A stretch of 64,000 nt of DNA from an uncultured virus (IMG/VR IMGVR_UViG_3300048020_000241) (taxonomy: Duplodnaviria; Heunggongvirae; Uroviricota; Caudoviricetes): the IMG/VR virus record IMGVR_UViG_3300048020_000241; one strand, written 5' to 3'. Below the pieces are notes generated by a model. That model did not search any database. It saw only the letters and a list, made by a program, of their open reading frames with translations, and had not been told where the DNA came from. Positions 7,202 to 35,585 of this stretch are shown one piece after another. Position 1 is the stretch's first letter. Each line of letters opens with the position of its first letter. The translations under genes and the position numbers were made by a program.

Positions 7202-7256
7202 AAAATAATGCTTGACTTTTTATAATAATTTTGGTAGTATACTTGTATTGAGAGTG
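7202..7256 (+). promoter_or_regulatory. conserved sigma70-type promoter/leader element (copy 1)
   Basis: TTGACT 7212, N17, TAGTAT 7235, then TATTGAGAGTG leader; 55 bp identical to 52832-52886. Confidence 0.85.
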
Positions 7257-8095: not shown

Positions 8096-8139
8096 TTAGA
8101 TTTGACACACCGAGTTTCGTTGCTTATTATTATTTGAAT

Positions 8140-16750: not shown

Positions 16751-17077
16751 ATGACCACTCTACGTTTCAATACACACAATGATTCTAGTATTGATGTCAA
16801 CGGAACATCGCACCAAGGAGCAATTTCCGAAACCTTTGAAAAATTATTAAAGGTTTTCGGAACTCCTATGGGTGCTTCGGATGATGGTAAAGTTGACGTA
16901 GAATGGAATATTATGTTTAATGACGGAGTTGTTGCAACCATTTACAATTGGAAAAACGGACCTGCAAGTATGGGTTCAGGGGGAACTAATCCAGTTGATA
17001 TTGAAACATGGCACATCGGTGGAAAAACTACCTGTGCAGTTTACGATGTTGAGGAGATTCTTAAAAATAATGCTTGA
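16751..17077 (+). CDS. conserved phage hypothetical protein
   Basis: GTSHQG...VFGTP...KVDVEW...TIYNWK...WHIGG; stop supplied by the next -35 box. Confidence 0.7.
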   Translation: MTTLRFNTHNDSSIDVNGTSHQGAISETFEKLLKVFGTPMGASDDGKVDVEWNIMFNDGVVATIYNWKNGPASMGSGGTNPVDIETWHIGGKTTCAVYDVEEILKNNA

Positions 17078-17118
17078 CTTTTTATAATTTTTTTGGTAGT
17101 GTATTACTATTGAGAATG
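17074..17118 (+). promoter_or_regulatory. conserved promoter/leader element
   Basis: TTGACT 17074, TAGTGT 17097, TATTGAGAATG. Confidence 0.8.
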
Positions 17119-17142
17119 ATTATTAACAAAACAAAAAGAGAG

Positions 17143-20103: not shown

Positions 20104-20126
20104 TAAAAACTTAACTAAATAAAAAA

Positions 20127-20702
20127 ATGACAAAGAAAAAAAGAGAGTTAGAAATCGGTGACAATATCAAAGAAATTAAACCAAGGAAAGGGGGGAAGAA
20201 ACGGTTTGGTGAAATCCTCTTGATATTAGATGATAGCAAAACCGATCCTATGGTGGAGTGTGCGGAAATTGATCCAAAAGAACTCACACTAATTGAGGAT
20301 GCGTTTGGTAATCTAAAAAAGTTTAAAACTAGACGTAGTAACATTAAGCATTATGTCCCACGTAAAACATTATTCAGAAAAGAAACATTTGATGTAGGAA
20401 AGTGCGTTGCGTGTAAAAGTGGAAATCGTACAAGATACGGAAGAATTATGGGTTATCTAAATCAGGAAGAAGGTTTATACCCAAATTCTTACAACGAGGG
20501 AAGATACAATGGACATGATTTGTTGCAATGCGTTCAAATTGATCCAAAACCTGGATTACACAGAATGCTTGAATCTGATGGTAGTCCAAAAATATTCGTA
20601 GGATATCCTGATAAGTGTAAACTTGTTCAAATTATTGATGTAGATTCAAACGGAAATCCTACAACAAAACTGAGGTTAGACATTCCTACACAGGGAAACT
20701 GA
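20127..20702 (+). CDS. hypothetical protein with two tandem SH3/KOW-like repeats
   Basis: EIGD...RFGEI...ECAEIDPK and DVGK...RYGRI...QCVQIDPK. Confidence 0.55.
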   Translation: MTKKKRELEIGDNIKEIKPRKGGKKRFGEILLILDDSKTDPMVECAEIDPKELTLIEDAFGNLKKFKTRRSNIKHYVPRKTLFRKETFDVGKCVACKSGNRTRYGRIMGYLNQEEGLYPNSYNEGRYNGHDLLQCVQIDPKPGLHRMLESDGSPKIFVGYPDKCKLVQIIDVDSNGNPTTKLRLDIPTQGN

Positions 20703-20758
20703 GTTTTTATAGCAATTTTTTGTTTGAATATATTTCAAACAAATATATATTTATTGTT

Positions 20759-22621
20759 ATGAAAAATTCTATTGTTGAAGGTGGTGGCATACCAAAACCT
20801 GATAAAATAAAAATTATCAAGGTTATGCGTAGTACATCATTTATGAATTATCGGAAAGACCTTGAAAAACAAGGAATCAAAGTTGATTTTGCAACCAGTC
20901 CTTTTGCTTATTACAAACTTACACATCGCAAGTGGGGTAAAAAATCTGACGGAAAAGAACGTGCTATTTACATTACAAGCAAAAAAAATGTTGGTGATGA
21001 TGCGGAATACATAAGCAACGATAATATTGCAATGGGTGAACTAAACGAAAATTCTCAAGAAAGTATGTTTAATAAAATGAAAACAAAAGCAGAAATTAAA
21101 AAGTTGGTAAAAGAAGTTGTTACAGAAATTTTAGCAGAAAATCATAATTTTAAGGTTGGTGACGAAGTAAAATTTAATGGTGATCACGATGGTGTGGTTG
21201 TTAAAGTTCATACAAGTGGTAAACTAAAGGGTCACATTGATGTACAAAAGAAAGGTCGTACTTCAACTGTAACACTTCACGGTGGCAACAAACGTGAAGT
21301 TCGTCTTGCAGAATCTATTTTGGAAGAAGGTGAAGCAAACATCAATGTTAATGCTTTATCACCAACTGAACAACAACTTGCAGTAGGTTTAATCAACGCA
21401 CTTGGCCACGGATCACATCCTATGGCAGATGTAAAAGGACTTAAATACTTTAAAGTTGATTATCTTGTGGACATCGTTTCAAAGAACAAAAGCAGACTTA
21501 GAGGTGATGTTAAAAAGCACGTTGCTAAAATACTAAAGAAACTTTCAGGTGCAATGGCAGAAGCAGAAATTGATGAAGGATCAAAGTGGTTAAAGTATAG
21601 TGATTTGCTTTTGGCAAAAAGTCGTGCAGTTGAAAAGTTCGGACCCGAATCCAAGGAAGTTCAAAAAATTGATAAAGAAATCAAAAAAGAAATGAACAAA
21701 CTTGGAATACACGAATCGTTGATAAACGAATCAAAAGATATTGCTTTCGTTTTAGACCAACTTGCAAATGCAGTTGATTTGTATCCAAAAGATGAATTTG
21801 CTAAACATATGGCAAAAAATACAAAGTACGATGAAAAGTCTTTTGAGAAGTTGTATGACGCATATTTCAAAATGAAAGCAATGGATCGTTTTCATATGGC
21901 AACGGACATTAGTAAGTCAAAGAGGTTTTTGAAGAAGTTTGGAATTAGTGAAACTGCTCAATCTGTAAACGAAGGAATGAGTGATTTAGACTTTGTTATT
22001 GACCAAATTTCAAACTCAATGGAACATTATGACGAAAAAGATTTTGTTAAGGATTTGTCAAAAGAAACCAAATATAATGCAAACTCATTAAAGAAGGTAT
22101 TCAATGCATATTGGGATATGGGTGCAATGGAACGTCATAAGATGAGTATGAACACAAACGATACAAAGAAGTTTCTTAAGAAGTTTGGAATTAAAGAAGA
22201 AGTTCAACCTATAAATGAAGGTTTGTGGACTGGATTAAAAAGAAGAGGAGACTCGAAGGGTATTAACGGTAAAAAAGGAATATGGGCAGAATGGGGTTCT
22301 GGAACAAGTTTTCAGCAAATTCTGTGGAGAATTTCTCCCAAAAAGGGTTTCTTAGATAAAGACGCATTGGATAAAGATGGTAAACCTGAAATGGATAGTT
22401 ACTGGACAGGTTGGCCTGGACCGGGAGAAGTGGGATTACTTCGTTTTTTTCAGCATAATGAATGGGAAGGTCTTGACATTGAAAAAGATTTTCCTTATGA
22501 CGATGTTAATAAAATGAGAATAGCATATAACAAACTTCCTGTTAAGACAAAAGTTCAAATGGCACACGGAGATCATAAACTCGCAATGAGATTTTTGGCA
22601 AAATTTGGAATCAAACCTTGA
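20759..22621 (+). CDS. putative capsid-internal polyprotein
   Basis: Lys-rich small domains separated by IVE/LNE/LAE/IDE/INE/VNE motifs; repeated helical domain; TATTTAT motif 4 nt before the ATG. Confidence 0.55.
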   Translation: MKNSIVEGGGIPKPDKIKIIKVMRSTSFMNYRKDLEKQGIKVDFATSPFAYYKLTHRKWGKKSDGKERAIYITSKKNVGDDAEYISNDNIAMGELNENSQESMFNKMKTKAEIKKLVKEVVTEILAENHNFKVGDEVKFNGDHDGVVVKVHTSGKLKGHIDVQKKGRTSTVTLHGGNKREVRLAESILEEGEANINVNALSPTEQQLAVGLINALGHGSHPMADVKGLKYFKVDYLVDIVSKNKSRLRGDVKKHVAKILKKLSGAMAEAEIDEGSKWLKYSDLLLAKSRAVEKFGPESKEVQKIDKEIKKEMNKLGIHESLINESKDIAFVLDQLANAVDLYPKDEFAKHMAKNTKYDEKSFEKLYDAYFKMKAMDRFHMATDISKSKRFLKKFGISETAQSVNEGMSDLDFVIDQISNSMEHYDEKDFVKDLSKETKYNANSLKKVFNAYWDMGAMERHKMSMNTNDTKKFLKKFGIKEEVQPINEGLWTGLKRRGDSKGINGKKGIWAEWGSGTSFQQILWRISPKKGFLDKDALDKDGKPEMDSYWTGWPGPGEVGLLRFFQHNEWEGLDIEKDFPYDDVNKMRIAYNKLPVKTKVQMAHGDHKLAMRFLAKFGIKP

Positions 22622-22626
22622 TTAAA

Positions 22627-22989
22627 ATGAAAATTACAAAAGAAAAACTTAAAGAAATGATTCAAGTAGAACTTGAACACATCAACGAAGGAATGAGCAA
22701 ACGAGAAGGTGCAGAAGTTATCAAGCAACTAGGTGGTGGTCGTTTCATCGCAATGACAGGTGCCAAAGACTTTTTTATTGGACCAAAAGGTGTTGTATTT
22801 AAAATCGGAAGAAATTCAAAAGGTGTAAATTATGTTCGCATTAATTTGAATAGCATGGACACTTACGATGTTGAGTATCTTTCAGTTAGAGCATACAAAG
22901 AAAAAGTAAAAAGCACATCAAAAGGAATTTATGCGGATATGCTTCGTGATTCATTTGAAGCAAACACAGGACTTAGAACATCATTATGA
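22627..22989 (+). CDS. putative capsid-internal protein
   Basis: Leader MKITKEKLKEMIQVELEHINE fused to a QLGGGRFIAMTGAK...DTYDVEY phage domain. Confidence 0.6.
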   Translation: MKITKEKLKEMIQVELEHINEGMSKREGAEVIKQLGGGRFIAMTGAKDFFIGPKGVVFKIGRNSKGVNYVRINLNSMDTYDVEYLSVRAYKEKVKSTSKGIYADMLRDSFEANTGLRTSL

Positions 22990-23282
22990 AAATTACAAAA
23001 AGCAGATTAAAAGAAATCGTTCGTGAAGAACTTAATGAAATGCGTCCTCATACTTCCAAGGATTTACCAACCCAAACTATTCTTGACACCATCAAAAAAG
23101 ATTTAGATTGGGAAGATGAATATCTTGGTTCAAAAGGAATGAAACAACTTGAAAAAGATTTAAAAAGAAAAAAAAGAATGTCTGCAACTGATTTAAGCAA
23201 ACTTCTTCCTGGGTACATTCCAAGTGACGAGATATTTGGAATATTCAAAAACCATTTAGCAATAGGACCCGATGACAAATGA
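22986..23282 (+). CDS. putative capsid-internal protein
   Basis: Leader MKITKSRLKEIVREELNE; ATGA coupling. Confidence 0.6.
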   Translation: MKITKSRLKEIVREELNEMRPHTSKDLPTQTILDTIKKDLDWEDEYLGSKGMKQLEKDLKRKKRMSATDLSKLLPGYIPSDEIFGIFKNHLAIGPDDK

Positions 23283-23899
23283 AAAAAATAAATGAAGTAA
23301 AAGTATCACCTGAACACAAAAAGCAGTTTTTAAAAGATGCACTTGTGATTCTTGATAATATGGAAAAAGCAAATCTTGTTGATAAAGACACGGATTTTAA
23401 AACCGTTAATAATACTTTGCGTATGGTTTTTAGTAAAATTGCAGGTGGAAAAGATAGTTACAACAATCGTTTATTTCATAAAATTCTTCCAAAAAAACTT
23501 AATACAGATTTGTACGACAATGGAGATGGCAATACATACGATAGTGTATGGATGTCACAAAATGATACTCAACGTGATACAATTCTTAAAAAAGCAATTA
23601 AAGCAAAACTTAATATAAGTGAAGCAGATGTTGATGAAAATCGTGCATTGGATAATGCAATTGCTAATCGTGATGCTAATCGTGCAAATCGTAAAGGAAT
23701 TGAACAATACCAAGATTTGTATTTTGGTTTACATAAACTAATAAGTAAAGTATCCAAAAACAATAAAGTAAAAGGATACGGTGGTGAATTAACTCACGCA
23801 TTCGTTGATTTACTTTGGGCAGTAGAAGATGATCGTCTTGCAGTTGGTGAAATATTTAATGCACTTAAAAAAGTAAAAAGTAAGATTTCCAAGAAGTGA
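23279..23899 (+). CDS. putative capsid-internal protein
   Basis: MKKINE leader, internal ISE/VDE motifs; ATGA coupling. Confidence 0.55.
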   Translation: MKKINEVKVSPEHKKQFLKDALVILDNMEKANLVDKDTDFKTVNNTLRMVFSKIAGGKDSYNNRLFHKILPKKLNTDLYDNGDGNTYDSVWMSQNDTQRDTILKKAIKAKLNISEADVDENRALDNAIANRDANRANRKGIEQYQDLYFGLHKLISKVSKNNKVKGYGGELTHAFVDLLWAVEDDRLAVGEIFNALKKVKSKISKK

Positions 23900-24639
23900 A
23901 AATATCAAAACAACAACTCAAAGAAATTATTCGTGAGGAACTTGCAAGTTTAAATGAGCAATTAACTGATCTACAATTTATCATCAACCAGGTTTCATTC
24001 GATATGAGACGATATAGCAATGAAAAAAAATTCGTTGATCATTTGTCAAAAGAAACCTCGTATGATGCAGATAAACTTAAAAATGTTTTTAAAGCATATC
24101 AAAAGTTAAGTAATACCGAAAAATACAAAATGGAAACACCATATAGTGGTGCGATACTTGCAAAAAAGTTTCTTGCCAAACATGGAATTGTTCGTGAAGA
24201 ACTTGCAAGTTTAAACGAAGATCAATACGGAGATGTTTCTTTTTCTCGTAGAAAACTCAAACTTGCGTGTGAAGACTCCGAAAGTATTCTTCAGTTGTTG
24301 GCAAATAAAGCAGAAGATGAGGAACTTCCAAACTGGTGGAAAGATAAAGTAAGCAAAGCAGCCGATTATCTTAATATTGCACGTGATTATCTTGCAACTG
24401 ATTCTCATACTGATGCAATCCACGAAGAAACCGAAAAAGAATTTCCGATTTGGGGCATTCCACCAGGGAAAAACTCAGAGGAATTGTTATACACAAAAGC
24501 ACCTTCTCATTCGCAAGCAAAAGTTATTGCAAGAATTCTTCGTGATAAACATGGATGTAAAAAAGTTAGAATTCAAGTATTAGATTTAGCACAAAATCCT
24601 GCGGATATTTTTAACTCTGATAAATTATTTAACAAATAA
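23896..24639 (+). CDS. putative capsid-internal polyprotein
   Basis: Leader MKISKQQLKEIIREELASLNE, REELASLNE duplicated, LPNWWKDKVSKAADYL motif. Confidence 0.6.
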   Translation: MKISKQQLKEIIREELASLNEQLTDLQFIINQVSFDMRRYSNEKKFVDHLSKETSYDADKLKNVFKAYQKLSNTEKYKMETPYSGAILAKKFLAKHGIVREELASLNEDQYGDVSFSRRKLKLACEDSESILQLLANKAEDEELPNWWKDKVSKAADYLNIARDYLATDSHTDAIHEETEKEFPIWGIPPGKNSEELLYTKAPSHSQAKVIARILRDKHGCKKVRIQVLDLAQNPADIFNSDKLFNK

Positions 24640-24644
24640 ATGTC

Positions 24645-24673
24645 TTGACTTTTTATAATAACTTTGATAGATT
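24645..24673 (+). promoter_or_regulatory. conserved promoter element
   Basis: TTGACTTTTTATA 24645, TAGATT 24668. Confidence 0.8.
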
Positions 24674-24682
24674 ATATAAAGA

Positions 24683-25747
24683 ATGAGGTACATGAGAATA
24701 GTAAACGAGATAAGATTATCTCAAACGGTGGATGCTAAACACAAAGATTCAATTGAGTTTGTGCAAAAATGGAAACAGGGTCAAAAGATTCCAAATCCAC
24801 AATTTCAGAAAATCAAAAGTGATGTATCAAGAGCATTTGATATTGCAACAAACAGCACAAAGTTGAAAGGTGCAAACGAGTTTACCGTTTGGGGACTACA
24901 AAAACAAGACGGAGAAACAGAAGAATACAAATATTCTTTTCCAAATAGTGTTCTTCACGTTTCGGGGTATCTTAAAAGAACTGCAAAGCAACTTAAAAGA
25001 ACAATCAAAAGTCCCAAAGCAAGCAAGATTGTAAAAGACGCAATGACTGCGTGTGAACCTTGGGAAAAGATTGCGATTACTTTAAAAGCAATGAAAAATG
25101 ATGTTGTTAAACGTCAGATTGGTGCAGGATCAAATAAACCAATGATACCCAAAGGTGCAATCAGCAAGGAAATTGAAGAAGAACTTGAAAAAATCGGTAA
25201 AGGATTTGAAAAAGAGTTGCAAGAAAACTTTGAAGATTATTATGAAATGATCATTGATCAATATCAAAAAGATGCAAAAAAACACGGAATCACAAGCACC
25301 TACGATTTATATAAGTCTCAGTCAAATTATCATTTGAATAAAATATTAAGTAGTTTTCTTGATAGCAAGTATGACCACAACGAACGTGGTGGATATGCTT
25401 ACACCCTTAAATCAGATTACAAAAAGATATTAAAAGATACTGCAAAACAAAATGCCAAAGAAGGTGTTGAGAAGTTTGTTTACAAAATGAAAATGAAACT
25501 TAGTGTGATTGTTGGTGGTCGTGGCATCGGTGTTAATGTTGACGGAAATCATAATCGCAATACAATGTCTTTTGATTTTGAGGACGGAAGTCGTTTCACG
25601 GTTAAAAATGGAATTGTTTTAAGTTATAGTGTTTATGGAAAACCTTTTTATCGTTATCCAACCACTTTTCATGATGTAATTTTACCGAATGGTGACAAAT
25701 TAAGAAATCCATCTGAGACAAAAATCAAAAAAGAGTTTGCAAAATAG
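24683..25747 (+). CDS. basic hypothetical protein, possibly virion-internal
   Basis: 354 aa, Lys-rich, N-terminal IVNE; C-terminal SVYGKPFYRYPTTFHDV. Confidence 0.6.
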   Translation: MRYMRIVNEIRLSQTVDAKHKDSIEFVQKWKQGQKIPNPQFQKIKSDVSRAFDIATNSTKLKGANEFTVWGLQKQDGETEEYKYSFPNSVLHVSGYLKRTAKQLKRTIKSPKASKIVKDAMTACEPWEKIAITLKAMKNDVVKRQIGAGSNKPMIPKGAISKEIEEELEKIGKGFEKELQENFEDYYEMIIDQYQKDAKKHGITSTYDLYKSQSNYHLNKILSSFLDSKYDHNERGGYAYTLKSDYKKILKDTAKQNAKEGVEKFVYKMKMKLSVIVGGRGIGVNVDGNHNRNTMSFDFEDGSRFTVKNGIVLSYSVYGKPFYRYPTTFHDVILPNGDKLRNPSETKIKKEFAK

Positions 25748-25782
25748 TCATATTTGTATATATTTAAGGTATTAGATATATC

Positions 25783-27912
25783 ATGAAAACCATAGTTTAT
25801 GTGCTTTTAGGGCTACTTGTGAGCTTGCCGGTGTGGTCTAATGAAACACCGCCGGAAAGAATTAATGCAGAGGAATTGCGTGAAATTTCTCAGAAAAGAA
25901 AAGTTGTTATTATCATCAACAAAGAAGGAAAACAACTTGAAGGAAAGGTTTTAGAATATGACGGTGAGTCTGTGCTATTTCAACGACAGAAAGATTTACA
26001 ATTATTTCGTTTTGATTTAACTGGTTTAGCACAACAATCGCAACGTATGATTAAAGACAATTATATGACTGCGAATTATAATGTGCCAAAATTACAAAGA
26101 CCACTTCAAGAAAATCAAATCAAGAAGTTCGCCGCATATGCAGACAATTTGGTGTTGGAAAAACTTCGTAGTGAAAAACAAAGACCAACCCGTGATGTAG
26201 ATGATTATACTTTTATGCGTAGAGCATATCTTAAAATCATTGGTCGTATTCCAAACAAAGCAGAAATTGATGAATTCAAAAAAGAAATGCGTGGAAACAA
26301 ACTGAAACTAATCAATAAGTTACTAGATAGTGAAGGTTACATTAATCATCAGTTGAATTATTATAGTGATATTCTTCGTATTCAGAATAAATTAAATAAT
26401 ACTAATATCAATAGTGGATTTCGTTATCGTGAATGGGTTCGCAATGAAATTCGTAATAATACTCCGTTTGACGAAATGGTACAAAAATTAATTGCATCAG
26501 AAGGTGCTTATTATGAACCAGGAAGTGAACCAATAGGTTTTTATTTGCGTGATCGTGGTATGCCATTAGATAATCTTGCAAACACGGTACAAGTGTTTTT
26601 AGGAACTCGTTTAGAATGTGCTATGTGTCACGATCATCCATTTGATAAATGGACACAAAAGCAGTTTTATGAAATGGCCGCATTTACCGATGGAGTAAGT
26701 CGTGTTCAATATCGTGAGAACTCTAAACTTGTTGGAGACTTCAATCGTATTGTTCGCAACGACAAAACAGAAGATGTCGGAACACTTAATCAATATCGCA
26801 ATTATATTCGTGACATTATGGGTTATGGATTAGATGATAATCTTGGTAAGGGTTCTATAAAACTTACAGATGCGTTTATGGAAGATGACGCAAAACCAGG
26901 AGATACTCTTCTTGCAAAAGCAATATTTGCTCCACCATTGGAAATTGAAAAAACTGACACACTTCCACAAAGTCGCAAACAATTTGCAGAATGGATTACC
27001 TCAGAAGCAAATCCAAGATTTACTACTGTTATTGTAAATCGTTTATGGAAACGAGCATTTGGAATTGGTTTGATTGAACCGGTTGATGATATGAACGATA
27101 ACACTCAATCAAGCAATCCTCAGTTACTTGCGTATCTTGAAAAAATTATGGCATCTGTTGATTATGATGTTAAAGAATTTATGCGAGTATTATATAGTAT
27201 GGACTTGTTTACACGTGATAGTGTTAAAGATGATCACAAAGGAGTAGAAACATTTTACTTTGCAGGACCACCTCTTCAACGAATGAAAGGTGAGCAAATA
27301 TGGGATTCACTTGTAACATTGGTATACAACGATATTGATTCACCTGATCGTTTTCCGAGCAATTACGATGAAAAGTATCAAGCAGTTTATGATCGTTACA
27401 AAGAATATACTGCTCAAGAAATTTATGATGAACTTAAAGAGTATCTTGCTAATACAGAAAAACCAAGTCGCAATCTTGCAGAAGTAGTTCAGCAATTAAA
27501 CGAGTCAGAAGGAAGGTACAAATCAAAGCAACTTAAAGACAGAGATTTAATTCGTAGTAGTTATGTAGGTTATCCACCACCTGGTGGACATCTTATTCGC
27601 CAGTTTGGTGGAAGTGACAAAGCACTTATTGAAAACTCAAACTTTGAAGCAACAACACCACAAGTATTGAATATGTTGAATGGTTTCGTGGAAAAAAGAA
27701 TTATCAATAATAAGAATGCTGATTTTATGAAGCAGATGGCACAAGAAAATCGTGAAACCGGAAAAATTGAGGACATCTTTATGAGCATTCTTAATCGTAA
27801 ACCAACTTCAACGGAGATGAAATTACTTAAAAAATATATCGATGAACCAAACGGTGCAAAACATATTGCGTGGATTCTTATGAACTCCCACGAATTTATT
27901 TTCATTCGTTAA
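25783..27912 (+). CDS. DUF1549/DUF1553 (PSCyt2/PSD1) protein with signal peptide, SHD1-like domain and CxxCH motif
   Basis: FMRRAYLKIIGRIP, FLGTRLECAMCHDHPFDKWTQKQFY, VNRLWKRAFGIGLIEPVDD, IAWILMNSHEFIF; N-terminal EGKQLEGKVL...FRFDLTGLAQQSQ. Confidence 0.9.
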   Translation: MKTIVYVLLGLLVSLPVWSNETPPERINAEELREISQKRKVVIIINKEGKQLEGKVLEYDGESVLFQRQKDLQLFRFDLTGLAQQSQRMIKDNYMTANYNVPKLQRPLQENQIKKFAAYADNLVLEKLRSEKQRPTRDVDDYTFMRRAYLKIIGRIPNKAEIDEFKKEMRGNKLKLINKLLDSEGYINHQLNYYSDILRIQNKLNNTNINSGFRYREWVRNEIRNNTPFDEMVQKLIASEGAYYEPGSEPIGFYLRDRGMPLDNLANTVQVFLGTRLECAMCHDHPFDKWTQKQFYEMAAFTDGVSRVQYRENSKLVGDFNRIVRNDKTEDVGTLNQYRNYIRDIMGYGLDDNLGKGSIKLTDAFMEDDAKPGDTLLAKAIFAPPLEIEKTDTLPQSRKQFAEWITSEANPRFTTVIVNRLWKRAFGIGLIEPVDDMNDNTQSSNPQLLAYLEKIMASVDYDVKEFMRVLYSMDLFTRDSVKDDHKGVETFYFAGPPLQRMKGEQIWDSLVTLVYNDIDSPDRFPSNYDEKYQAVYDRYKEYTAQEIYDELKEYLANTEKPSRNLAEVVQQLNESEGRYKSKQLKDRDLIRSSYVGYPPPGGHLIRQFGGSDKALIENSNFEATTPQVLNMLNGFVEKRIINNKNADFMKQMAQENRETGKIEDIFMSILNRKPTSTEMKLLKKYIDEPNGAKHIAWILMNSHEFIFIR

Positions 27913-27940
27913 TTTTAAACTAGAAAAGGAAAAAAATAAA

Positions 27941-29224
27941 ATGGAAAACCTATTAAAAGACGAACTCTCAAGAAGAGGATTCCTCACAGGCATGGCAAAA
28001 TCTTGTCTTGGTGTTAGTGCAATCTTAGGAGCAGAAGATTTGCTTGCGTATGAAATACCTGGTAAAACTGCATCTGCTCGTCACGTTATCTTTTTGTATA
28101 TGGCAGGTGGAATGACTCATATTGATACATTTGATCCTAAACCTGAGAACAAAGATGTTATGGGTGAAACAACTGCTATCAACACATCTGCTGATGGAAT
28201 TCAGTTGGGTAATTGGTTACCAAATACTGCAAAGCAAATGCACAATGCGGCTTTGATTCGTAGTTTGACAAGTAATCAAGGAGCACACCAACAAGCAAAC
28301 TATTTGCTTCATACTTCTTATCAACGCAGAGGAACTATCAAGCATCCTACATTGGGAAGTTGGGTAAGTCGTTTATCAGGTAAATTGAATCGCACTCTTC
28401 CTGCTCACGTTCGTATCAACGGTGGAAGTGATGTATTGGGTGCTGGATTCTTAGAAAGCAAACACGGTCCTCTTCCATTGGGTAATCCAAGTAGTGGAAT
28501 TCAGAATGTTAAGGCAGCCGGTTATCTTGAGCAATCATTATACACACAACGTCTTCATACTGCACAAGAATTTAACAAAATGTTTCTGAATGAATACTCT
28601 CAAAAACAAGTACGTGCGTACACAGACTTATATAACGATGCAGTAAAGTTGATGAGCAGTAAAGATTTGGAAGCATTTGATCTTACAAAAGAAACCGAAG
28701 AAACCCGTGAACTTTACGGAGAAAATAACTTTGGACAAGGATGTTTGCTTGCTCGTCGTTTAGTTGAAACTGGTGTTCGTTTTGTTGAAGTTCAACTTGG
28801 TGGTTGGGATATGCACAACGGAGTATTTGACGGAATGGCAACCCGTGGTGCTACACTTGACCAAGGTTTATCAGCATTGCTTTCTGATCTCGAAAGAACA
28901 GGTAAAATTGATGACACTATGGTTGTTGTTGCAAGTGAGTTCGGAAGAACACCTGAAGTTAAAGCAGGTCGTATCGGACGAGACCATCACCCAACTGCTT
29001 TTAGTGCAATGCTTGCAGGTGGAGGAATCAAGGGTGGAACCGTTTATGGTAAGAGTGACGAACGAGCACACTATGTAGAAGAAGAAGGTTCATCTGTAGA
29101 AGACCTCAATGCAACGGTTGCTCATGCTCTTGGTCTTAAACTTGAAGAAATACACTACTCACCAAGTGGACGTCCATTCAAGGTAGCACACGATGGTAAA
29201 GTGCTTACCAAGTTGTTAGTGTAA
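27941..29224 (+). CDS. DUF1501 family protein with twin-arginine signal
   Basis: SRRGFL, VIFLYMAGGMTHIDTFDPKP, FGQGCLLARRLVETGVRFVEV, GWDMH, SEFGRTP, GRDHHP. Confidence 0.95.
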   Translation: MENLLKDELSRRGFLTGMAKSCLGVSAILGAEDLLAYEIPGKTASARHVIFLYMAGGMTHIDTFDPKPENKDVMGETTAINTSADGIQLGNWLPNTAKQMHNAALIRSLTSNQGAHQQANYLLHTSYQRRGTIKHPTLGSWVSRLSGKLNRTLPAHVRINGGSDVLGAGFLESKHGPLPLGNPSSGIQNVKAAGYLEQSLYTQRLHTAQEFNKMFLNEYSQKQVRAYTDLYNDAVKLMSSKDLEAFDLTKETEETRELYGENNFGQGCLLARRLVETGVRFVEVQLGGWDMHNGVFDGMATRGATLDQGLSALLSDLERTGKIDDTMVVVASEFGRTPEVKAGRIGRDHHPTAFSAMLAGGGIKGGTVYGKSDERAHYVEEEGSSVEDLNATVAHALGLKLEEIHYSPSGRPFKVAHDGKVLTKLLV

Positions 29225-29261
29225 TTTAAGTTAATTACTTACAGTTTAGTTAGTTTAGTGC

Positions 29262-29311
29262 TTGACTTTTTATAAAAAGTTTGGTAGTATTCTTGTATTG
29301 AGAGTGAGAAA
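29262..29311 (+). promoter_or_regulatory. conserved promoter/leader element
   Basis: TTGACT 29262, TAGTAT 29285, TATTGAGAGTGAGAA. Confidence 0.85.
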
Positions 29312-29336
29312 GAACCAAACTAAAAAAGGAGAAAAT

Positions 29337-29507
29337 ATGAGTGAGTTCGTTAATAAAAGTGATATACTAGCAGAAAAGATTGCAAGAAGAACAGAAGTTA
29401 CCAAGGAAATAAAGGAAATGAGGTCAGTTGGAAATTATGATGGTGCTGAGTTTTTATTGAATGAATTGAGAAATCTGAATCGGATGATCAAGAATTTCAG
29501 CAAGTAA
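29337..29507 (+). CDS. small hypothetical protein
   Basis: SD AAGGAG, ATG 29337. Confidence 0.6.
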   Translation: MSEFVNKSDILAEKIARRTEVTKEIKEMRSVGNYDGAEFLLNELRNLNRMIKNFSK

Positions 29508-29519
29508 TGATTTTTTAGG

Positions 29520-29575
29520 TTGACTTTTTATAATAATTCTGATAGGATTACTGTATTGAAAGTGAGAGAAGAGAA
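29520..29575 (+). promoter_or_regulatory. conserved promoter/leader element
   Basis: TTGACT 29520, TAGGAT 29543, TATTGAAAGTGAGAGAAGAGAA. Confidence 0.85.
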
Positions 29576-29584
29576 ACAAAAAAT

Positions 29585-29932
29585 ATGAGAGAAACTAAGT
29601 TTGATTTAACTACCCCACGTGGAATTTACGATGCTATGAAGCAACGCAAGATTGATCTTCACAACGATGCCAAGTCAACGGCAGAAATTTTTAGGAAGCA
29701 TAATCTGTTTGTGCGAGTTGTGTATCGCAAGCATTATGATCCTTATGTAAGAATTTATGGTAGTGCTTGCAAGCAAGTTCACGGTGATCCCAAGTGGATT
29801 GATATTGCTAATACTGCAATGCAAGAAGCAATTGCAATGGGATATCAAAATGATGTCTTTTTTAGTCACGAAGGTGAATGTAGCACCGGTATCGGCAATA
29901 GTCTTCGTTGGAGAAATTGCCAAAGTGCTTAA
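29585..29932 (+). CDS. hypothetical protein
   Basis: 115 aa directly after the promoter element. Confidence 0.6.
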   Translation: MRETKFDLTTPRGIYDAMKQRKIDLHNDAKSTAEIFRKHNLFVRVVYRKHYDPYVRIYGSACKQVHGDPKWIDIANTAMQEAIAMGYQNDVFFSHEGECSTGIGNSLRWRNCQSA

Positions 29933-29958
29933 TACACAGAATTACAAAAATAACAATT

Positions 29959-30195
29959 ATGACACAAGCAGAAATTAGAAACAAAATCAAAGAAATCGTT
30001 AACGAAAATACTCGTTATGCTGATCCCAAGGATTCTATTAACACAAGTAAGTTTCACGGATGGGAAGCAAAGAAGTTTGCCGGAAAAGAAGGTTACTGCA
30101 TTCAGTCAGCAGAAGAAGCACTTGATGATATCATACACGACTTGAAGTCTTTGCAAAGAGAAATTGCTACTTCACCATCACTTACAACAAGTTAA
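29959..30195 (+). CDS. hypothetical protein
   Basis: ATG at 29959. Confidence 0.55.
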   Translation: MTQAEIRNKIKEIVNENTRYADPKDSINTSKFHGWEAKKFAGKEGYCIQSAEEALDDIIHDLKSLQREIATSPSLTTS

Positions 30196-30202
30196 CAATA
30201 TT

Positions 30203-30442
30203 ATGAGTATAAATCAGCATATAGAAGAATGTGCAACGGAAAGTGGAGTTGACCTTGAGGTTAGCAATTCCAACGAAGAAAACATTGAATACAAAAGTCA
30301 CATCATTGAGGTATGGTACGATGAGAATTCCAGTTCACCTCTTGCATGGAATGCTTTTATCAAAGGATTTGGAACTTATTCAGAGTATGGACGTGATCGG
30401 GTTGTTCACGTCGCAAAACGAAAAATTGACGGACTATGCTAA
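30203..30442 (+). CDS. hypothetical protein
   Basis: ATG at 30203. Confidence 0.55.
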   Translation: MSINQHIEECATESGVDLEVSNSNEENIEYKSHIIEVWYDENSSSPLAWNAFIKGFGTYSEYGRDRVVHVAKRKIDGLC

Positions 30443-30595
30443 ATCTACTTAAAAACATTATTGGTATAGCAATTACTTTATACGGAACATTACTGATTAT
30501 CAATTTAGTGTATTGTATTATCGGAGAACTTGAATGGAATAGATTTTTTTATTTGTAATTGAGTCTAACTTACATCTATTCAATATATATTGAGT

Positions 30596-31867
30596 ATGGA
30601 AAAGTTAGACAAGGCAGATAAAGATATGCTAATAGAATGTGTATCTGGTGGTGTAAATAATCTTGAGTTTTTGTCTAAAAAATCATCAACAAGAATTAAT
30701 GTGTATAAGATTCTTGCGAATGATCGTCCAAGTGCAAGAAGAAAAGTTCAAGCAAGACTTAGAAAAGAAAAAATACGATTCACCGAAAAGAAAACTAATT
30801 TATCAAGTGAATCAATCACAGAATTCAATCGTGGACAACTTATAGTACGGATTTTGTATAAACCACTACGGGGTGGTATGACTGAAACTACATTAAATTC
30901 TACGATTACTGAACTTGTGCCATGTTTAATGTTCCATAACAACATCAATACAAGTGATGTCAATAAACTACAAACCGAGTTATTTAAATTAAAACATTCA
31001 TCTCAAAAGTGCTATGTAGATGTCGCAGACTCGGTAAACGGTTTAAAATTTATTGAAAGATTTGAAACATCTTCAAAATACAATGAAAAAATGAAGAACG
31101 CAATGGCAGTATATAAGTTTTTATGTGAAACAAACAAAAAGAAACCCATAAAAACAGTCTATTGGACATATCGCAGAAAACCAGCAGGAGTTCCAAGTAA
31201 TTCCCCTGCTGACATTGTAATTTGTTTTCAGGACAGAGAACTTTTGGGAGTGAGTCTTAAAGCAGGAACTAGTTCAAGTAAAGAACCTTTGCTTAACACT
31301 TATATAAATCCTATATTTGATTATTTTGATTCAAGTAAAACTTCTGCATTACGAAAGAAACTTTATACATCAGTATACAATAAAATAGAAAATATACCTT
31401 CAATAGAAAACTACGATAAGTCGCAAAAAAAGCAAACACTTGAACTTTTAGATTTACTTGAAAGAACCGACTTAAAAAGATACAATGACTTGTACGATGA
31501 TTCTCTTAAAATAATACGAGACAATCTTGTAAAAACTCTTGTAAGTGATAAAAAGAAGTTTTTAGATTACTTGAAGTATGCAGTCTTAAAAGAAAGTAAT
31601 GTTCCTGTGATAATAATAAAAGCATCTGGTTCATCGTTTGAAGAAAAAAAAGATTCCAATAAACTTAAAAAACTTCTTCCACAAATAGTTTCAATAGATG
31701 CAAAGATCACAAGTTCATCTAAACAAAATTTTTGTATACTATTAAAAGGGAAAACGGGAATTATTGGTAAAACGAATTGGTCCGTGAGAAGTAATAAGGT
31801 GGGAGTCGACCATAAACTTGGCCAATTTTTTAATATGGCAGTCAAATACAATGGTTTAGATTATTAA
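30596..31867 (+). CDS. putative PD-(D/E)XK-fold nuclease
   Basis: TITELVP helix, SPADIVI and GVSLKAG motifs. Confidence 0.55.
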   Translation: MEKLDKADKDMLIECVSGGVNNLEFLSKKSSTRINVYKILANDRPSARRKVQARLRKEKIRFTEKKTNLSSESITEFNRGQLIVRILYKPLRGGMTETTLNSTITELVPCLMFHNNINTSDVNKLQTELFKLKHSSQKCYVDVADSVNGLKFIERFETSSKYNEKMKNAMAVYKFLCETNKKKPIKTVYWTYRRKPAGVPSNSPADIVICFQDRELLGVSLKAGTSSSKEPLLNTYINPIFDYFDSSKTSALRKKLYTSVYNKIENIPSIENYDKSQKKQTLELLDLLERTDLKRYNDLYDDSLKIIRDNLVKTLVSDKKKFLDYLKYAVLKESNVPVIIIKASGSSFEEKKDSNKLKKLLPQIVSIDAKITSSSKQNFCILLKGKTGIIGKTNWSVRSNKVGVDHKLGQFFNMAVKYNGLDY

Positions 31868-32259
31868 CCATTTTGTTTCCATTCTTCACCTTCATCATCT
31901 CCAAAGTCCTCGATGTCTTCAACTTCATCAAAATCCGTATAGGCATCAAGGTATTTACTTTCATCAGATGTAAAGTGATTTATATCATGCAAAAACAAAT
32001 GACCATCAAAAGTAGGATATTTTTCACGAAACTTCTTTTCAAACTCAACAAACTTTTCAAGTGTCAAAGTTTCATAAGGAAAATCAATACAGGCCTCAAT
32101 GTCTTCTCCAAATGTACCACCTGCAGAACCTTTAAAAGATTCAACAAAATCTAAAATTTCATCTACACGGGCATCAATTTCAGCATCATTTATACCAACG
32201 AAACCATATTCTTTACCACGGATGGAGATACCGTGTTTTATGTCAAAAAGTCCTTCCAT
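31864..32259 (-). CDS. acidic hypothetical protein (only minus-strand gene)
   Basis: ATG 32259 preceded by TATTTAT on the minus strand; its stop shares TTAA with the convergent gene. Confidence 0.65.
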   Translation of the reverse strand: MEGLFDIKHGISIRGKEYGFVGINDAEIDARVDEILDFVESFKGSAGGTFGEDIEACIDFPYETLTLEKFVEFEKKFREKYPTFDGHLFLHDINHFTSDESKYLDAYTDFDEVEDIEDFGDDEGEEWKQNG

Positions 32260-32312
32260 GTTAAACATAAATATCAAAAAAAAATAGAAACATATATATA
32301 TTCGCATTTTGC

Positions 32313-32341
32313 TTGACTTTTTATAGTTTTTTTAATAGTAT
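32313..32341 (+). promoter_or_regulatory. conserved promoter element (leaderless variant)
   Basis: TTGACTTTTTATA 32313, TAGTAT 32336, ATG 32348. Confidence 0.8.
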
Positions 32342-32347
32342 TTAAAA

Positions 32348-33004
32348 ATGAGAGAATCTGTTATAGAAAAATATAATAAAGGTGTAATTCTGCATTTTCA
32401 TAAAAGTATGCATGATAATTGCAAGTGGGACAAAAACAATAGCACTTGGAATGTGCTTAAAAAGAGATATGATAATGGTCAACGTGACTCGCAAATGCAA
32501 AAACTTTATGATGCTGAGTATTCTTTAATTCCATGTTCTCCCAAAGATAATCTTAGTTTTGATGAATTGATTTACAAAATAAACGAGGTGGTCAATCATA
32601 CTTGGTTTAGAAAAAAGTTCGGAAGACTTTTCTCGGACACAGTATTGAAAGTGGAAAATGCAAGTTCTCGTCAGAATATGGCATACGCATTTGGTACAGA
32701 TTTGCTATCATTTCCACCTCACTTTTGTAATGTACCAATCATTTTACACGAATTAACACATATTATAGTAGATAGATTACATTTTGTGGTAAACATGAAC
32801 AAAAGTTATACTACTCACGGAAGAATGTTTGCTTTTATTTATCTTGAACTCGTTAAGAAATTTATGGGTGATCGTAGTTACACTATTCTTAAAACTGGAT
32901 ACAAAAACTATAATGTTAAGTATCGTAATAGAATTCCACAAACTTCAGCAAAAAAGAAAATACTAAGAGAAAGATTAAAAGTTATAAAAAGTCAAAATGT
33001 ATAA
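32348..33004 (+). CDS. HExxH putative metallohydrolase (Rv0185/SprT-like)
   Basis: RDSQMQKLYDAE, ILHELTH, HGRMF motifs. Confidence 0.7.
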   Translation: MRESVIEKYNKGVILHFHKSMHDNCKWDKNNSTWNVLKKRYDNGQRDSQMQKLYDAEYSLIPCSPKDNLSFDELIYKINEVVNHTWFRKKFGRLFSDTVLKVENASSRQNMAYAFGTDLLSFPPHFCNVPIILHELTHIIVDRLHFVVNMNKSYTTHGRMFAFIYLELVKKFMGDRSYTILKTGYKNYNVKYRNRIPQTSAKKKILRERLKVIKSQNV

Positions 33005-33016
33005 TATTTATATTTT

Positions 33017-33160
33017 GTGTTAGACAAAATACTTGATAAACTTAGTTGGATAATTGCATATATGTGCTTACCTATAACATATCCTATTCATTATTTCAGA
33101 ATGAAAGAACTTGATAAAAAGATAGCAAACGAAAGAAAAGAACGAGAAGCACATCTTTGA
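33017..33160 (+). CDS. 47-aa single-pass membrane protein
   Basis: GTG start 5 nt after TATTTAT; hydrophobic segment followed by a charged tail. Confidence 0.45.
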   Translation: MLDKILDKLSWIIAYMCLPITYPIHYFRMKELDKKIANERKEREAHL

Positions 33161-33464
33161 AGATAAAATACTATAAAAGGGGTTGACACAATTAGTATTT
33201 TGTAATATATTTGTTACTTTATGAATATTTTAAAGAATAGCAAATGTAATCAGCAATGTGCTAATAATACATTTGAGGCGGACAACAATAATGTCATATA
33301 TGGTGATGCTAACCATATCAGGGGTGTGGATAGAAAGTATAACTTTTTATAAAAACTCTTTAATTATAGTAAAAAAGCAAAACATTATTATAATTATAAT
33401 AAAGTCCTTCATAACGAAGGCACGTTTTCAATTAAGAAAACATAGAACATAAGGAAATAGCAAA

Positions 33465-33698
33465 ATGAAAGCAATATTCGAAAAAGTAAATGGATTCGTT
33501 AAGGGCTTGACTGGTATTTTTCTCGGAGTTGTAGGACTCGGAGTTGCTGGTCAAATCGTTCTTGGTGATAAAGTTGGACTCGATGTTATCGGTAACCTTC
33601 AAGGTATCGTTGACGGGTTCGTTGGTGAAGGTGCAAGTCTTGCAGGTTTAATTACTCTGCTTGTAGTTTTAGCATTGATCGCTGGTGACGACAAGTAA
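33465..33698 (+). CDS. small Gly-rich membrane protein
   Basis: 77 aa, two hydrophobic helices around DVIGNL; SD TAAGGA; hairpins in both UTRs. Confidence 0.75.
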   Translation: MKAIFEKVNGFVKGLTGIFLGVVGLGVAGQIVLGDKVGLDVIGNLQGIVDGFVGEGASLAGLITLLVVLALIAGDDK

Positions 33699-33700
33699 AC

Positions 33701-33787
33701 TATACTAGGTAACACCTAGAATATGTCTGAGCAATCAGGCTTTAGTTTTGTACCCCTTTCCTTATGGTCTGGGGTACATTTCTTTTA
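33701..33787 (+). terminator. 3' hairpin cluster and terminator
   Basis: CTAGGT/ACCTAG, GTCTGA-GCAA-TCAGGC and TGTACCCC/GGGGTACA followed by a T-rich tract. Confidence 0.7.
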
Positions 33788-33830
33788 TAAAGGTATTGAT
33801 AATCTGTATTGAATTTGTTAAAATACTTTT

Positions 33831-35585
33831 ATGCTTATTCTTCCAAAAAGTGTTTTGTCGTGCGTAGATAATTACGATGATCGTATTCGTGCTTTGTGCG
33901 AGCATTTTGTAAATGAAGTAACATGGAACGAAACTTACGAAAATCGTTTGTGCGAAGAATTTGATATTATTCAGCAAAAGAACTTTATTCAATGCTTTGA
34001 ACAAGTAACTTATATTGTGAGTTATATGCGTTCGCAGAATATTCCGCACGTTTTGCGTGGAAGTGGTGCGTGTAGTTTAGTTTGTTACTTGCTTGGTATT
34101 ACTCATATTGATCCTGTGAAAGAGAATATGGCATTAGCACGATTTATGAACTTTCATAGAAACGATCAACCTGATATTGATTTGGATGTTCCACATTATT
34201 ATCGTGATGACATATTAAAGCATTTATATGAAAAGTATCCGAATCGTGTTGCAAGAATCAGCAACGATGTCAAGTATTCCGAGAAAACTGCGTTGCGAGA
34301 AGTTATGCGTAAATACGGATTTCGTAAACAACTTCCACGGAATTTTAAAGTGGAGCATTATTTTCTTGATCCAACTGATGTTGCCAAGATTTATGCTGAA
34401 GCAGATAAATTAATCGGTGAACATAATCATTGGTCTTTGCATTGTGGTGGAATTATTGTGTATGATGATAAAGTGCCTGAAAAGGATATTCTCAAAGACA
34501 ATCAAATAAAACTCACAAAATACGATGTAGAAGAACAAAATTTAATTAAAATAGATTTGCTTTGCAATCGTGGATTAAGTCAGTTGTGGGATATAAATAA
34601 AAAATTGGTACATGAATATCCTGTTAACGATGAAAATGTAGAAGAGTTATTCAGAAACGGAGATGTTATCGGATTAACACAAGCAGAATCACGAACGATG
34701 CGTAAATGCGTTATGGCAATTCAACCTAAAAGTTACAAAGACCTTGCATTGTGTCTTGCTATAATTCGTCCTGCGGCTGCTGACAACAAACGCAAAAAGA
34801 ATTACTTTGAAGATTATACATCAGGTAATAAAAATCATATGTTGATATATGACGATGATAGCATTTATTATATTGCAGAAGTTCTTGGATGTGATTATGG
34901 AACTGCTGATGCTTATCGTAGAGCATTCAAACGAAACGAAACGACACGCATAGAAGATTTCCAAAATACTTACGACAACAAAATGCTGAATAGTACATCT
35001 TCTACATTCAACGACAAAACACAATACTCTCAGTTGCGTGAGTTGGACAAGTATTCGTTTTGCAAAGGTCATGCTCTTGCGTATGGTCAACTTGTATGGG
35101 CATTAGCATACAACAAGCATTATCACGCAGAAAAATTTTGGGAAAGCACTCTTAAAAACAATCAAAGCAGTTATCGTAAATGGGTTCATATTCGTGAAGC
35201 ACAGATTGCAGGTGTATTTGTTCCAAACAAAAACCATTTTATGAGTAGCAAAGATCAATTTCTTAAACAAGGATGGTGGACAGGTGAAGAGTTTTTACCA
35301 GGATGCTTTCTTGAACCATACGAAGATGAACCGAATGTTTATATGTTTCGTGGTATAATTGCGAATAGTCGTACTTTACGAAAGTTCGGCAAAACAACAC
35401 GTATGATTACTATTGGATACGACAACGGAAAATTTTTGGACTTAATTGTTGAAGGAGATGTTTGGTGTGGTAATCATACAATTATTCAGGGTGTCGGGGA
35501 AATAACAACGCATTGTAATTGCGAAAGTATGAAAGTAATCAAGATGTGGAAAACTTGGTTTGACAAAAAGCATTATTCTTTCTAA
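33831..35585 (+). CDS. dnaE: DNA polymerase III alpha-like (family C) protein lacking the PHP domain
   Basis: RGSGACSLVCYLLGITHIDP, PDIDLD, HCGGII, KIDLL, AIIRP, YSFCKGHALAY; 584 aa. Confidence 0.85.
   Translation: MLILPKSVLSCVDNYDDRIRALCEHFVNEVTWNETYENRLCEEFDIIQQKNFIQCFEQVTYIVSYMRSQNIPHVLRGSGACSLVCYLLGITHIDPVKENMALARFMNFHRNDQPDIDLDVPHYYRDDILKHLYEKYPNRVARISNDVKYSEKTALREVMRKYGFRKQLPRNFKVEHYFLDPTDVAKIYAEADKLIGEHNHWSLHCGGIIVYDDKVPEKDILKDNQIKLTKYDVEEQNLIKIDLLCNRGLSQLWDINKKLVHEYPVNDENVEELFRNGDVIGLTQAESRTMRKCVMAIQPKSYKDLALCLAIIRPAAADNKRKKNYFEDYTSGNKNHMLIYDDDSIYYIAEVLGCDYGTADAYRRAFKRNETTRIEDFQNTYDNKMLNSTSSTFNDKTQYSQLRELDKYSFCKGHALAYGQLVWALAYNKHYHAEKFWESTLKNNQSSYRKWVHIREAQIAGVFVPNKNHFMSSKDQFLKQGWWTGEEFLPGCFLEPYEDEPNVYMFRGIIANSRTLRKFGKTTRMITIGYDNGKFLDLIVEGDVWCGNHTIIQGVGEITTHCNCESMKVIKMWKTWFDKKHYSF

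Follow-up and report, generated by a model that had tools for sequence, protein, structure and literature searches.

In Planctomycetes, Verrucomicrobia and Lentisphaerae, DUF1501 proteins form a conserved module with proteins that carry PSCyt1, PSCyt2 and PSD1 domains. The portions of Kamneva et al. 2012 (PMC3542564) available to us propose a role in electron transport and credit the first naming of the domains to Studholme et al. 2004. PSCyt genes also lie near sulfatases in freshwater Verrucomicrobia, with no function given in the available portions of He et al. 2017 (PMC5615132), and in the same portions of both papers cellular paralogues of the PSCyt/PSD proteins are described as bearing carbohydrate-binding or protein-binding modules. 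Herein, we report a two-gene copy of this module, genes A and B, in 64,000 nucleotides of DNA from an uncultured virus of the Caudoviricetes (IMG/VR IMGVR_UViG_3300048020_000241), the whole of which is referred to as the window. What is new is the phage context of an uncharacterised bacterial module: the copy is real, intact and under selection, and it is probably expressed. Overall, the best explanation, to which we assign a probability of roughly 0.55, is that the pair forms an auxiliary module, derived from a host, of a lineage of very large marine phages. A preliminary description of the window had called the locus a candidate new system; this is too strong, since the module has been known in bacteria of the Planctomycetes-Verrucomicrobia-Chlamydiae (PVC) group since the 2012 study.

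The phage pair and the PVC module have the same Pfam families in the order A then B, a signal peptide on A, a twin-arginine signal on B and a CxxCH motif. The PVC module occurs in tens of paralogues per genome, whereas the phage pair is single-copy and phage-carried. Phage A is minimal, consisting of an SHD1-like domain, PSCyt2 and PSD1 without PSCyt1 or a carbohydrate-binding module, and its 709 residues compare with 845 in the nearest copy from Opitutia. CAMCH in the phage corresponds to CAQCH in cells, and the phage lacks the third gene, for a cytochrome, that follows B in the Opitutia locus L043.

The two open reading frames (ORFs) were found exactly where an intact two-gene arrangement had been claimed, on the same strand and 28 bp apart (Table 1). 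The domain assignment also held, all three domains scoring above the Pfam cut-offs: PSCyt2 (DUF1549) at residues 121-304 of A (E 2.6e-40; 139 bits, cut-off 29.8), PSD1 (DUF1553) further along A (Table 1), and DUF1501 in B, where profile positions 1-390 of 390 were covered (E 1.5e-114; 383.6 bits, cut-off 27). PHROGs and NCBIfam contained no family for A or B. Both short motifs named in the preliminary description, CAMCH in A and SRRGFL in B, were located. Residues C279, A280, C282, H283, H285 and P286 of A are invariant in 55/55 aligned A proteins (22-51% identity). The motif is CAMCH in 12/12 phage A copies; of 55 cellular upstream ORFs, 51 have CAQCH and the remaining four are fragments truncated at contig ends. 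The CAMCH of A is the sole CxxCH among the window ORFs of at least 80 aa. A putative Sec signal had been proposed for A, and a hydrophobic, signal-peptide-like N-terminus could be read in the window copy and in all 13 viral homologues. In B, (S/T)RRxF was found in 13/13 viral copies, and R11 and R12 are retained in 95% and 94%, respectively, of 132 DUF1501 relatives.

The proposed SHD1-like domain of A was upheld as a likeness, though not by Pfam: the SHD1 model (PF03983) gave no match to the phage A N-terminus even at E<=10. At the same position, two cellular A homologues scored above the Pfam cut-off of 23.7 (L041, 28.6 bits; L051, 25.8 bits), and an hhalign comparison of the profile of phage and Opitutia N-termini with that of SHD1-bearing cellular N-termini gave a probability of 92% (E 6.6e-7). 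When the whole model of A was compared with solved structures, Sla1 homology domain 1 came out first (2hbp; Z score 6.7, root-mean-square deviation [rmsd] 2.1, 56 residues aligned), a likeness that concerns the small N-terminal beta-barrel.

The window is a fragment of a huge phage. Of its ORFs of at least 80 aa, 60/64 lie on one strand, and 92% of the DNA is coding. Phage-type genes encode a ClpP-type prohead protease, a MoxR/CobS-type ATPase, an ATP-dependent ligase, DNA polymerase III (Pol III) alpha, giant Laminin_G_3 proteins and a phrog_2496 protein that is 36% identical to Synechococcus phages. The best deposited relative is an uncultured 484-kb phage (LR756508.1; 43% identity for Pol III alpha and 36.5% for a CobT-like protein). 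The nearest named Atlas clusters of this 765-aa CobT-like protein (scores 0.97-0.98) are 100% viral and labelled Uroviricota. Its gene, which encodes a VWA protein (9433-11730, +), adjoins that of the MoxR/CobS-type AAA ATPase (12098-13294, +), and such a pair is typical of large marine phages. The phage-like, AT-rich codon usage noted in the preliminary description was borne out: the G+C content at third codon positions (GC3) is 0.23 for A and 0.25 for B, within the range of 0.18-0.28 of 11 other window genes.

A scan of metagenomes returned 80 loci, 22 of which aligned to the window over >2.5 kb. In 15 of these 22, a single unbroken alignment ran from the upstream gene through A to B, and many extended into the downstream genes; one locus from a 359-kb contig (L125) was collinear with window positions 16982-33791. 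The junctions around the pair are kept across the phage family at 75-96% nucleotide identity. Since 15 independent assemblies reproduce the junctions, the window is not a chimera, and the flank break that had been raised as a possible objection was not found; the universally conserved residues are all retained in the window's A and B.

When 50,697 GenBank phage records were searched by tblastn, neither A nor B found a match. A literature search that covered few subscription journals revealed no paper on phage copies of the pair; the only phage mention, in the part of the source available, was a weak CDD hit in a 61-aa ORF of a Pseudomonas phage (PMC5418858). The earlier statement that the pair is undescribed in phages thus holds for the literature and for GenBank phages, but unannotated copies sit in IMG/VR. 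Thirteen distinct IMG/VR contigs had both genes close together, with 65-72% identity to the window for B and 47-51% for A, and in nine of the 13 the pair is followed at a distance of 1.6-7.1 kb by a Pol III alpha-like gene, compared with 4.6 kb in the window. All three IMG/VR records examined whole were complete by CheckV (184, 205 and 222 kb) and had a large terminase above the Pfam cut-off. The pair is therefore phage-borne, as had been claimed, on the evidence of its viral neighbours and of these complete phages. Among the 120 matches listed for B, at least 95 were relatives of 82-99% identity, on contigs of up to 566-570 kb. In a 50%-identity library, 16,352 cluster representatives matched B at E<=0.001.

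The closest cellular relatives of B belong to Opitutia/Opitutae metagenome-assembled genomes (MAGs; 57% and 55% identity), followed by Verrucomicrobiales (~50%) and Planctomycetota (35-46%), and in most of their loci gene A lies immediately upstream of B. Trees were built with quick IQ-TREE for B (100 rows, LG+C20) and with LG+G4 for A (55 rows). The 19 phage and metagenome rows of the B tree formed one clade (Shimodaira-Hasegawa-like approximate likelihood ratio test [SH-aLRT] 100) that was sister (96) to the Opitutia loci L050 and L043; in the A tree, a phage clade of 12 (SH-aLRT 100) was sister (98) to the same two loci. The phage clade expected from a search of viral databases was thus recovered in both trees, nested inside Verrucomicrobiota. 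The concordance of the two trees indicates that the pair moved as one unit, and a joint derivation of the phage copies from a Verrucomicrobiota bacterium near marine Opitutia appears strongly supported. Locus L043, the closest cellular one, is truly cellular, its flanks encoding TPR/multihaem cytochrome, aminotransferase, sulfatase and glyoxalase proteins. The product of the gene that directly follows B there (L043:7293-9011) has two PSCyt1 domains and matches cbb3-type cytochrome c; no PSCyt1 gene was found in the phage window. The flanks of 13 close cellular loci were heterogeneous and had nothing else in common, so the two genes constitute the conserved core.

Candidates for a third component were considered and rejected. 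None of the 13 IMG/VR loci contains the upstream 354-aa gene, and the small ORFs after B have neither a family match nor a CxxCH. A small, very basic lysine-rich gene adjoins the pair in 10 IMG/VR loci (L001, L003-L010 and L018), whereas the window has it at a distance of 31 kb (60446-61042); its product contains a phrog_7595-like domain and resembles a structural or internal protein of phages. One IMG/VR contig (82,790 bp) has an additional DUF1501 gene between A and B (L008:8709-9980); the gene shares 34% identity with the first copy and groups with a Planctomycetota clade (SH-aLRT 100), which indicates an independent acquisition.

The ratio of nonsynonymous to synonymous substitution rates (dN/dS) was determined by the pairwise Nei-Gojobori method for pairs with 0.05<dS<1.5. 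The median was 0.139 for A (94 pairs, 59 sequences) and 0.096 for B (291 pairs, 87 sequences), alongside 0.152 for the neighbouring 354-aa phage gene (50 pairs, 11 sequences). Both A and B are under strong purifying selection in phages; a dN/dS below 1 had been anticipated, and neutral evolution does not fit these values.

An 11-base motif, GCTTGACTTTT, occurs in 15 copies with at most 1 mismatch, all on the plus strand and all intergenic, when 2.1 are expected; 0/100 shuffles reached 15. The copies start at 7210, 9116, 9363, 12028, 14858, 17072, 24643, 29260, 29518, 32311, 51759, 52356, 52840, 54144 and 54959, and short matches are present in nearly all related loci. The motif probably represents a promoter class of the phage itself, the -35 element being like that of sigma-70. 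At the nearest copy upstream of the pair, a sigma-70 scan gave TTGACT-17-TAGATT with TG (24645-24673), and this copy is likely the start of a unit comprising the 354-aa gene, A and B in that order. Within the lineage of the window, the 354-aa gene keeps its collinearity with A and B and is probably co-transcribed with them, yet it stands outside the module. A further copy follows B, with TTGACT-17-TAGTAT and TG at 29262-29290; since it lies directly after B, the pair seems to end its transcription unit. The generic scans were uninformative alone (41 sigma-70 sites versus 28.9 +/- 5.3 in shuffled sequence; 4 terminators versus 3.4), and the repeated motif was of more use. Since their uptake, the two genes have been passed on in phages; their codon usage is fully adapted, and a promoter-like motif of the phage lies ahead of them.

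Contigs from RNA libraries of 4 runs in 4 studies covered parts of A and B at ~95-98% identity, and one contig of 1226 nt bridged the A-B junction. These contigs fit transcription in nature, and the pair is probably expressed. In three runs the contigs left ~29.8-33.1 kb uncovered, which was not used as evidence.

The structure of B was modelled by AlphaFold2 with a 132-sequence alignment (mean predicted local distance difference test [pLDDT] 93.6, predicted TM score [pTM] 0.89). Exhaustive structural alignment placed PafA (Z 20.3, 277 aligned, rmsd 4.2), ENPP6 (20.2), steroid sulfatase (19.1) and Xac NPP (18.8) at the top, in a tie with ENPP7 and ENPP4; 69 chains reached Z>=8, and the 50 entries listed spanned Z 20.3-15.5. 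Foldseek returned sulfatases, LtaS and alkaline phosphatases (E 4.8e-8 to 1e-5, TM score only ~0.4). On this model, B is predicted to fold as an alkaline-phosphatase-superfamily enzyme. Residues 43-427 have their core fold in common with PafA (5too), NPP/ENPP (5ege, 5udy, 4lr2, 7mw8) and type I sulfatases (1p49 and others), at Z 17-20 over 245-277 aligned residues (rmsd 3.2-4.2), with an identity of only 10-18%. The modelled likeness may extend to conserved Asp, His and Glu residues at positions expected for a metal site. In 132 sequences, H116, D290 and R336 are invariant, H292 and H349 are conserved at 99%, E333 at 95%, S/T59 at 94%, D65 at 93% and D62 at 83%, and we infer that B carries a metal centre of the alkaline-phosphatase/NPP kind. 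Unlike the enzymes of that superfamily, B has an invariant H116 and a Tat (twin-arginine translocation) signal, and it has an obligate-looking partner protein, which PafA, NPP/ENPP and the sulfatases do not. The formylglycine signature C/SxPxR is absent from the window's B and occurs anywhere in only 7/132 relatives, in no conserved column, so B is not a formylglycine sulfatase. Pfam Sulfatase gave no match to B at E<=10, and Pfam Phosphodiest gave a weak one (E 0.11).

For the complex, A(121-709) and B(40-427) were predicted together from our own alignments, along with 3 controls. The A-B complex scored 0.81, as against 0.00 for the best of the 3 controls, in keeping with the complex anticipated by the preliminary description. 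The score mark is reached by 116/157 solved complexes and by 2/215 mismatched pairs, counts that are rough since own alignments were used. Three runs agreed in at least 97% of the contacts, with a partner pLDDT of at least 85. Searches of the PDB by sequence profile with A and B gave nothing better than E 0.58; with no solved relative of either family at the level of sequence profiles, the score does not reflect a memorised complex. The predicted interface sets A residues 480-500, 601-642 and 677-707 against the helical insert of B, and the contacts of lowest error involve A 697-707. Four invariant residues of A (R500, G609, Q627 and N633) lie in it, as do the near-invariant W697 (0.96), L699 (0.96), N701 (0.98) and F707 (0.96); the mean conservation of A is 0.57 at the interface versus 0.48 elsewhere. 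On the B side, the contact surface is less conserved than the rest of the protein (0.36 vs 0.51). The predicted complex supports binding of A to B through the conserved PSD1 C-terminus and the helical insert. It suggests that PSD1 may be a DUF1501-docking domain and that the cap helices of B may be tuned to their own partner.

The model of A (AlphaFold2 with 55 sequences; pLDDT 88.5, pTM 0.86) consists of two parts, a small beta domain and, after it, a large body that is helical throughout. For the helical body, VIA-align found no match above Z 5.1 in 48,161 chains, and Foldseek found none at E<=0.001.

Given these features, the pair might act as follows. A would be exported unfolded by the Sec route and B folded by the Tat route, probably loaded with metal, and the mature proteins would assemble as a heterodimer in the host periplasm. 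The most conserved part of PSD1, including W-x-L-x-N-x-x-E-F-x-F, would dock on the helical insert of B. B would be the catalytic subunit, a metalloenzyme in which D62/D65, H116, D290, H292, E333, H349 and S/T59 are conserved. A would have no catalytic role and would serve as an adaptor or cofactor subunit, with haem or metal held at its invariant CxxCHxHP site. The carbohydrate- or protein-binding modules reported for cellular A paralogues fit an adaptor role of A. As the likeliest of the functions considered, though short of even odds, we tentatively suggest that the complex could cleave periplasmic phosphate- or sulfate-ester compounds, a possible source of phosphorus or sulfur with which the infected cell would build a very large phage genome. 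A broader proposal, which we regard as doubtful, is that the PSCyt/PSD and DUF1501 pairs that PVC bacteria have by the thousand are two-subunit periplasmic enzymes in which the variable A targets, the conserved B catalyses and the poorly conserved cap helices of B set the cognate pairing, and that jumbo/mega phages (184 kb to ~570 kb) of marine Opitutia-type Verrucomicrobia keep a minimal version as a new auxiliary class.

Several points weigh against the explanation by a host-derived auxiliary module, or against parts of it. Among the window proteins, no match to capsid, portal or terminase was recognised. No tRNA was found in the window, so tRNA gives no clue to the host. One 93% relative of B (P0020) was deposited under the label of a Flavobacteriaceae MAG protein; this is probably a binning artefact, in which a phage contig was grouped with a low-GC bacterial genome, although it could be a weak host hint in conflict with the Verrucomicrobiota origin of the genes. 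Both trees were obtained by quick searches, rooted at the midpoint and supported by SH-aLRT values only. The RNA contigs give no strand, level or timing, and carry-over of DNA is possible. As for the chemistry, the predicted interface contains neither the CxxCH nor the metal-type residues of B and is therefore silent. With the whole 709-aa model as query, no cytochrome c fold was listed for A residues 100-709, and the CxxCH, to judge by its sequence a possible haem site, could be a metal site or a redox disulfide instead. Mapping of the active site through a sulfatase was tried and dropped as too weak (hhalign of DUF1501 against the L043 sulfatase; 40 columns, probability 2.5%). The earlier proposal of a periplasmic complex maintained by the phage therefore stands in that the pair is phage-borne and host-derived, has export signals, is under selection and is predicted to form a complex; its redox part may hold less well, the CxxCH being invariant but no cytochrome c fold having been recognised around it with the whole model as query.

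The invariance of the CxxCH in 55/55 A proteins could also mean that A is a true c-type cytochrome whose haem exchanges electrons with B, making the pair a periplasmic electron-transfer or oxidoreductase unit and not a hydrolase. Sec-type export of A would be as for apocytochromes, Tat export of B suits a cofactor-bearing enzyme, and L043 has a PSCyt1/cytochrome c protein after B and a multihaem cytochrome upstream. Electron transport is, in addition, the role proposed in the portions of Kamneva et al. 2012 (PMC3542564) mentioned above. However, the PSCyt2 region is without a recognised cytochrome fold, the fold family of B comprises hydrolases and transferases and not oxidoreductases, the window has no PSCyt1 gene and no other CxxCH protein, and the predicted A-B interface is distant in sequence from the CxxCH. 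We consider this possibility unlikely.

The structural neighbours of B also include LtaS, EptA, EptC and PbgA (Z 16-17), and the complex might accordingly modify a periplasmic or outer-membrane polymer in the manner of phosphoethanolamine- or phosphoglycerol-transferases, in order to block superinfection or to aid lysis and not for nutrient gain. The peptide-binding-type SHD1 domain of A and the carbohydrate-binding modules on cellular A paralogues, where the two papers describe them (PMC3542564, PMC5615132), would agree with such a role. However, those transferases are anchored in the membrane, unlike B, which is a soluble Tat substrate; phosphatases and phosphodiesterases of the soluble kind outscore them against B, and no lysis or exclusion genes surround the pair, which renders envelope remodelling quite improbable.

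That the pair is bacterial and mis-binned or mis-assembled, or a decaying passenger gene in a phage, might be argued from the Flavobacteriaceae label on one close B relative, from the lack of a recognised capsid or terminase in the window and from the absence of the window's own lineage among the IMG/VR matches returned, but it is largely refuted and hardly credible in view of the same junctions in 15 independent assemblies, a GC3 that matches phage genes, virus-type genes on both flanks, dN/dS of 0.10-0.14, the retention of all universally conserved residues and the related complete phages that carry both the pair and a terminase.

The preferred explanation, an auxiliary module taken from a host, has a counterpart in cyanophages, whose pstS and phoA-type genes are auxiliary genes for nutrient gain. 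Like these, the pair is host-derived, encodes export signals, is under purifying selection in a lytic-type phage genome and is plausibly nutrient-related. Unlike them, it encodes a predicted exported complex of two gene products, uses two export routes and is of PVC-type origin.

Table 1. Features of the gene pair and its surroundings, in window positions
Feature	Position	Strand	Remarks
GCTTGACTTTT copy, 1 mismatch	24643..24653	+	nearest copy upstream of the pair
Upstream phage gene	24683..25747	+	354 aa; no signal peptide; no Pfam or PHROG match
Gene A	25783..27912	+	709 aa; Sec-type signal peptide (putative), SHD1-like beta domain, PSCyt2 (DUF1549), PSD1 (DUF1553)
SHD1-like small beta-barrel of A	25897..26067	+	residues 39-95; structural match and profile comparison
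CAMCH motif of A	26617..26631	+	residues C279-H283, within the invariant block C-A-x-C-H-x-H-P
PSD1/DUF1553 domain of A	26974..27837	+	residues 398-685; Pfam E 3.7e-37, 128.5 bits, cut-off 28.5
Conserved C-terminal motif of A, W-x-L-x-N-x-x-E-F-x-F	27871..27903	+	residues 697-707; predicted core of the B-docking surface
Gene B	27941..29224	+	427 aa; twin-arginine signal and DUF1501; predicted alkaline-phosphatase-superfamily fold
Twin-arginine motif SRRGFL of B	27968..27985	+	residues 10-15
Helical insert of B	28454..28654	+	residues 172-238; predicted contact surface for A
GCTTGACTTTT copy, exact	29260..29270	+	just after B; putative start of the next unit

Other genes of the window are described here in their own right. 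A full ClpP protease (8134-8757, +; Pfam E 1.7e-83) and a polyprenyl synthetase (62610-63620, +; E 4.3e-59) look host-derived, and a restriction endonuclease of the MvaI/BcnI family is encoded at 54208-54951 (+; Pfam E 4.9e-23). The Pol III alpha gene (33831-35585, +; 584 aa) encodes the NTPase and finger domains only; what is missing of the polymerase may be encoded by a gene of its own, and the polymerase would then be split. Three neighbouring genes on the plus strand, starting at 22627, 22986 and 23896, have the N-terminal motif MKI(T/S)K..LKE(I/M)(I/V).(E/V)EL in common, a similar stretch of which lies inside 20720-22621; by analogy with the internal proteins of phages, the motif may be a capsid-targeting or processing signal. 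The proteins of 633 and 247 aa also have in common a repeated domain of ~65 aa that ends in KKFLKKFGI.

Few orphan families of Planctomycetota and Verrucomicrobiota are as large as the PSCyt/PSD-DUF1501 modules, whose function, open since 2004-2012, has now become more testable. The phage pair is single-copy, minimal, strongly selected and predicted to form a heterodimer, and it is therefore far easier to express, mutate and assay than the bacterial paralogues. That a phage keeps the pair argues for a payoff of its activity within a single infection cycle. To our knowledge, very few phages have been described for PVC-type hosts, Verrucomicrobiota among them, and the first lytic phage of Verrucomicrobia has reportedly been announced in the title of one paper (PMC4642752). 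The pair offers a host clue in this respect, since it ties very large marine phages to Verrucomicrobiota. If the reading of a two-subunit enzyme with a docking PSD1 is true, it would provide the first workable model of the chemistry of the family and a host marker for the phages.

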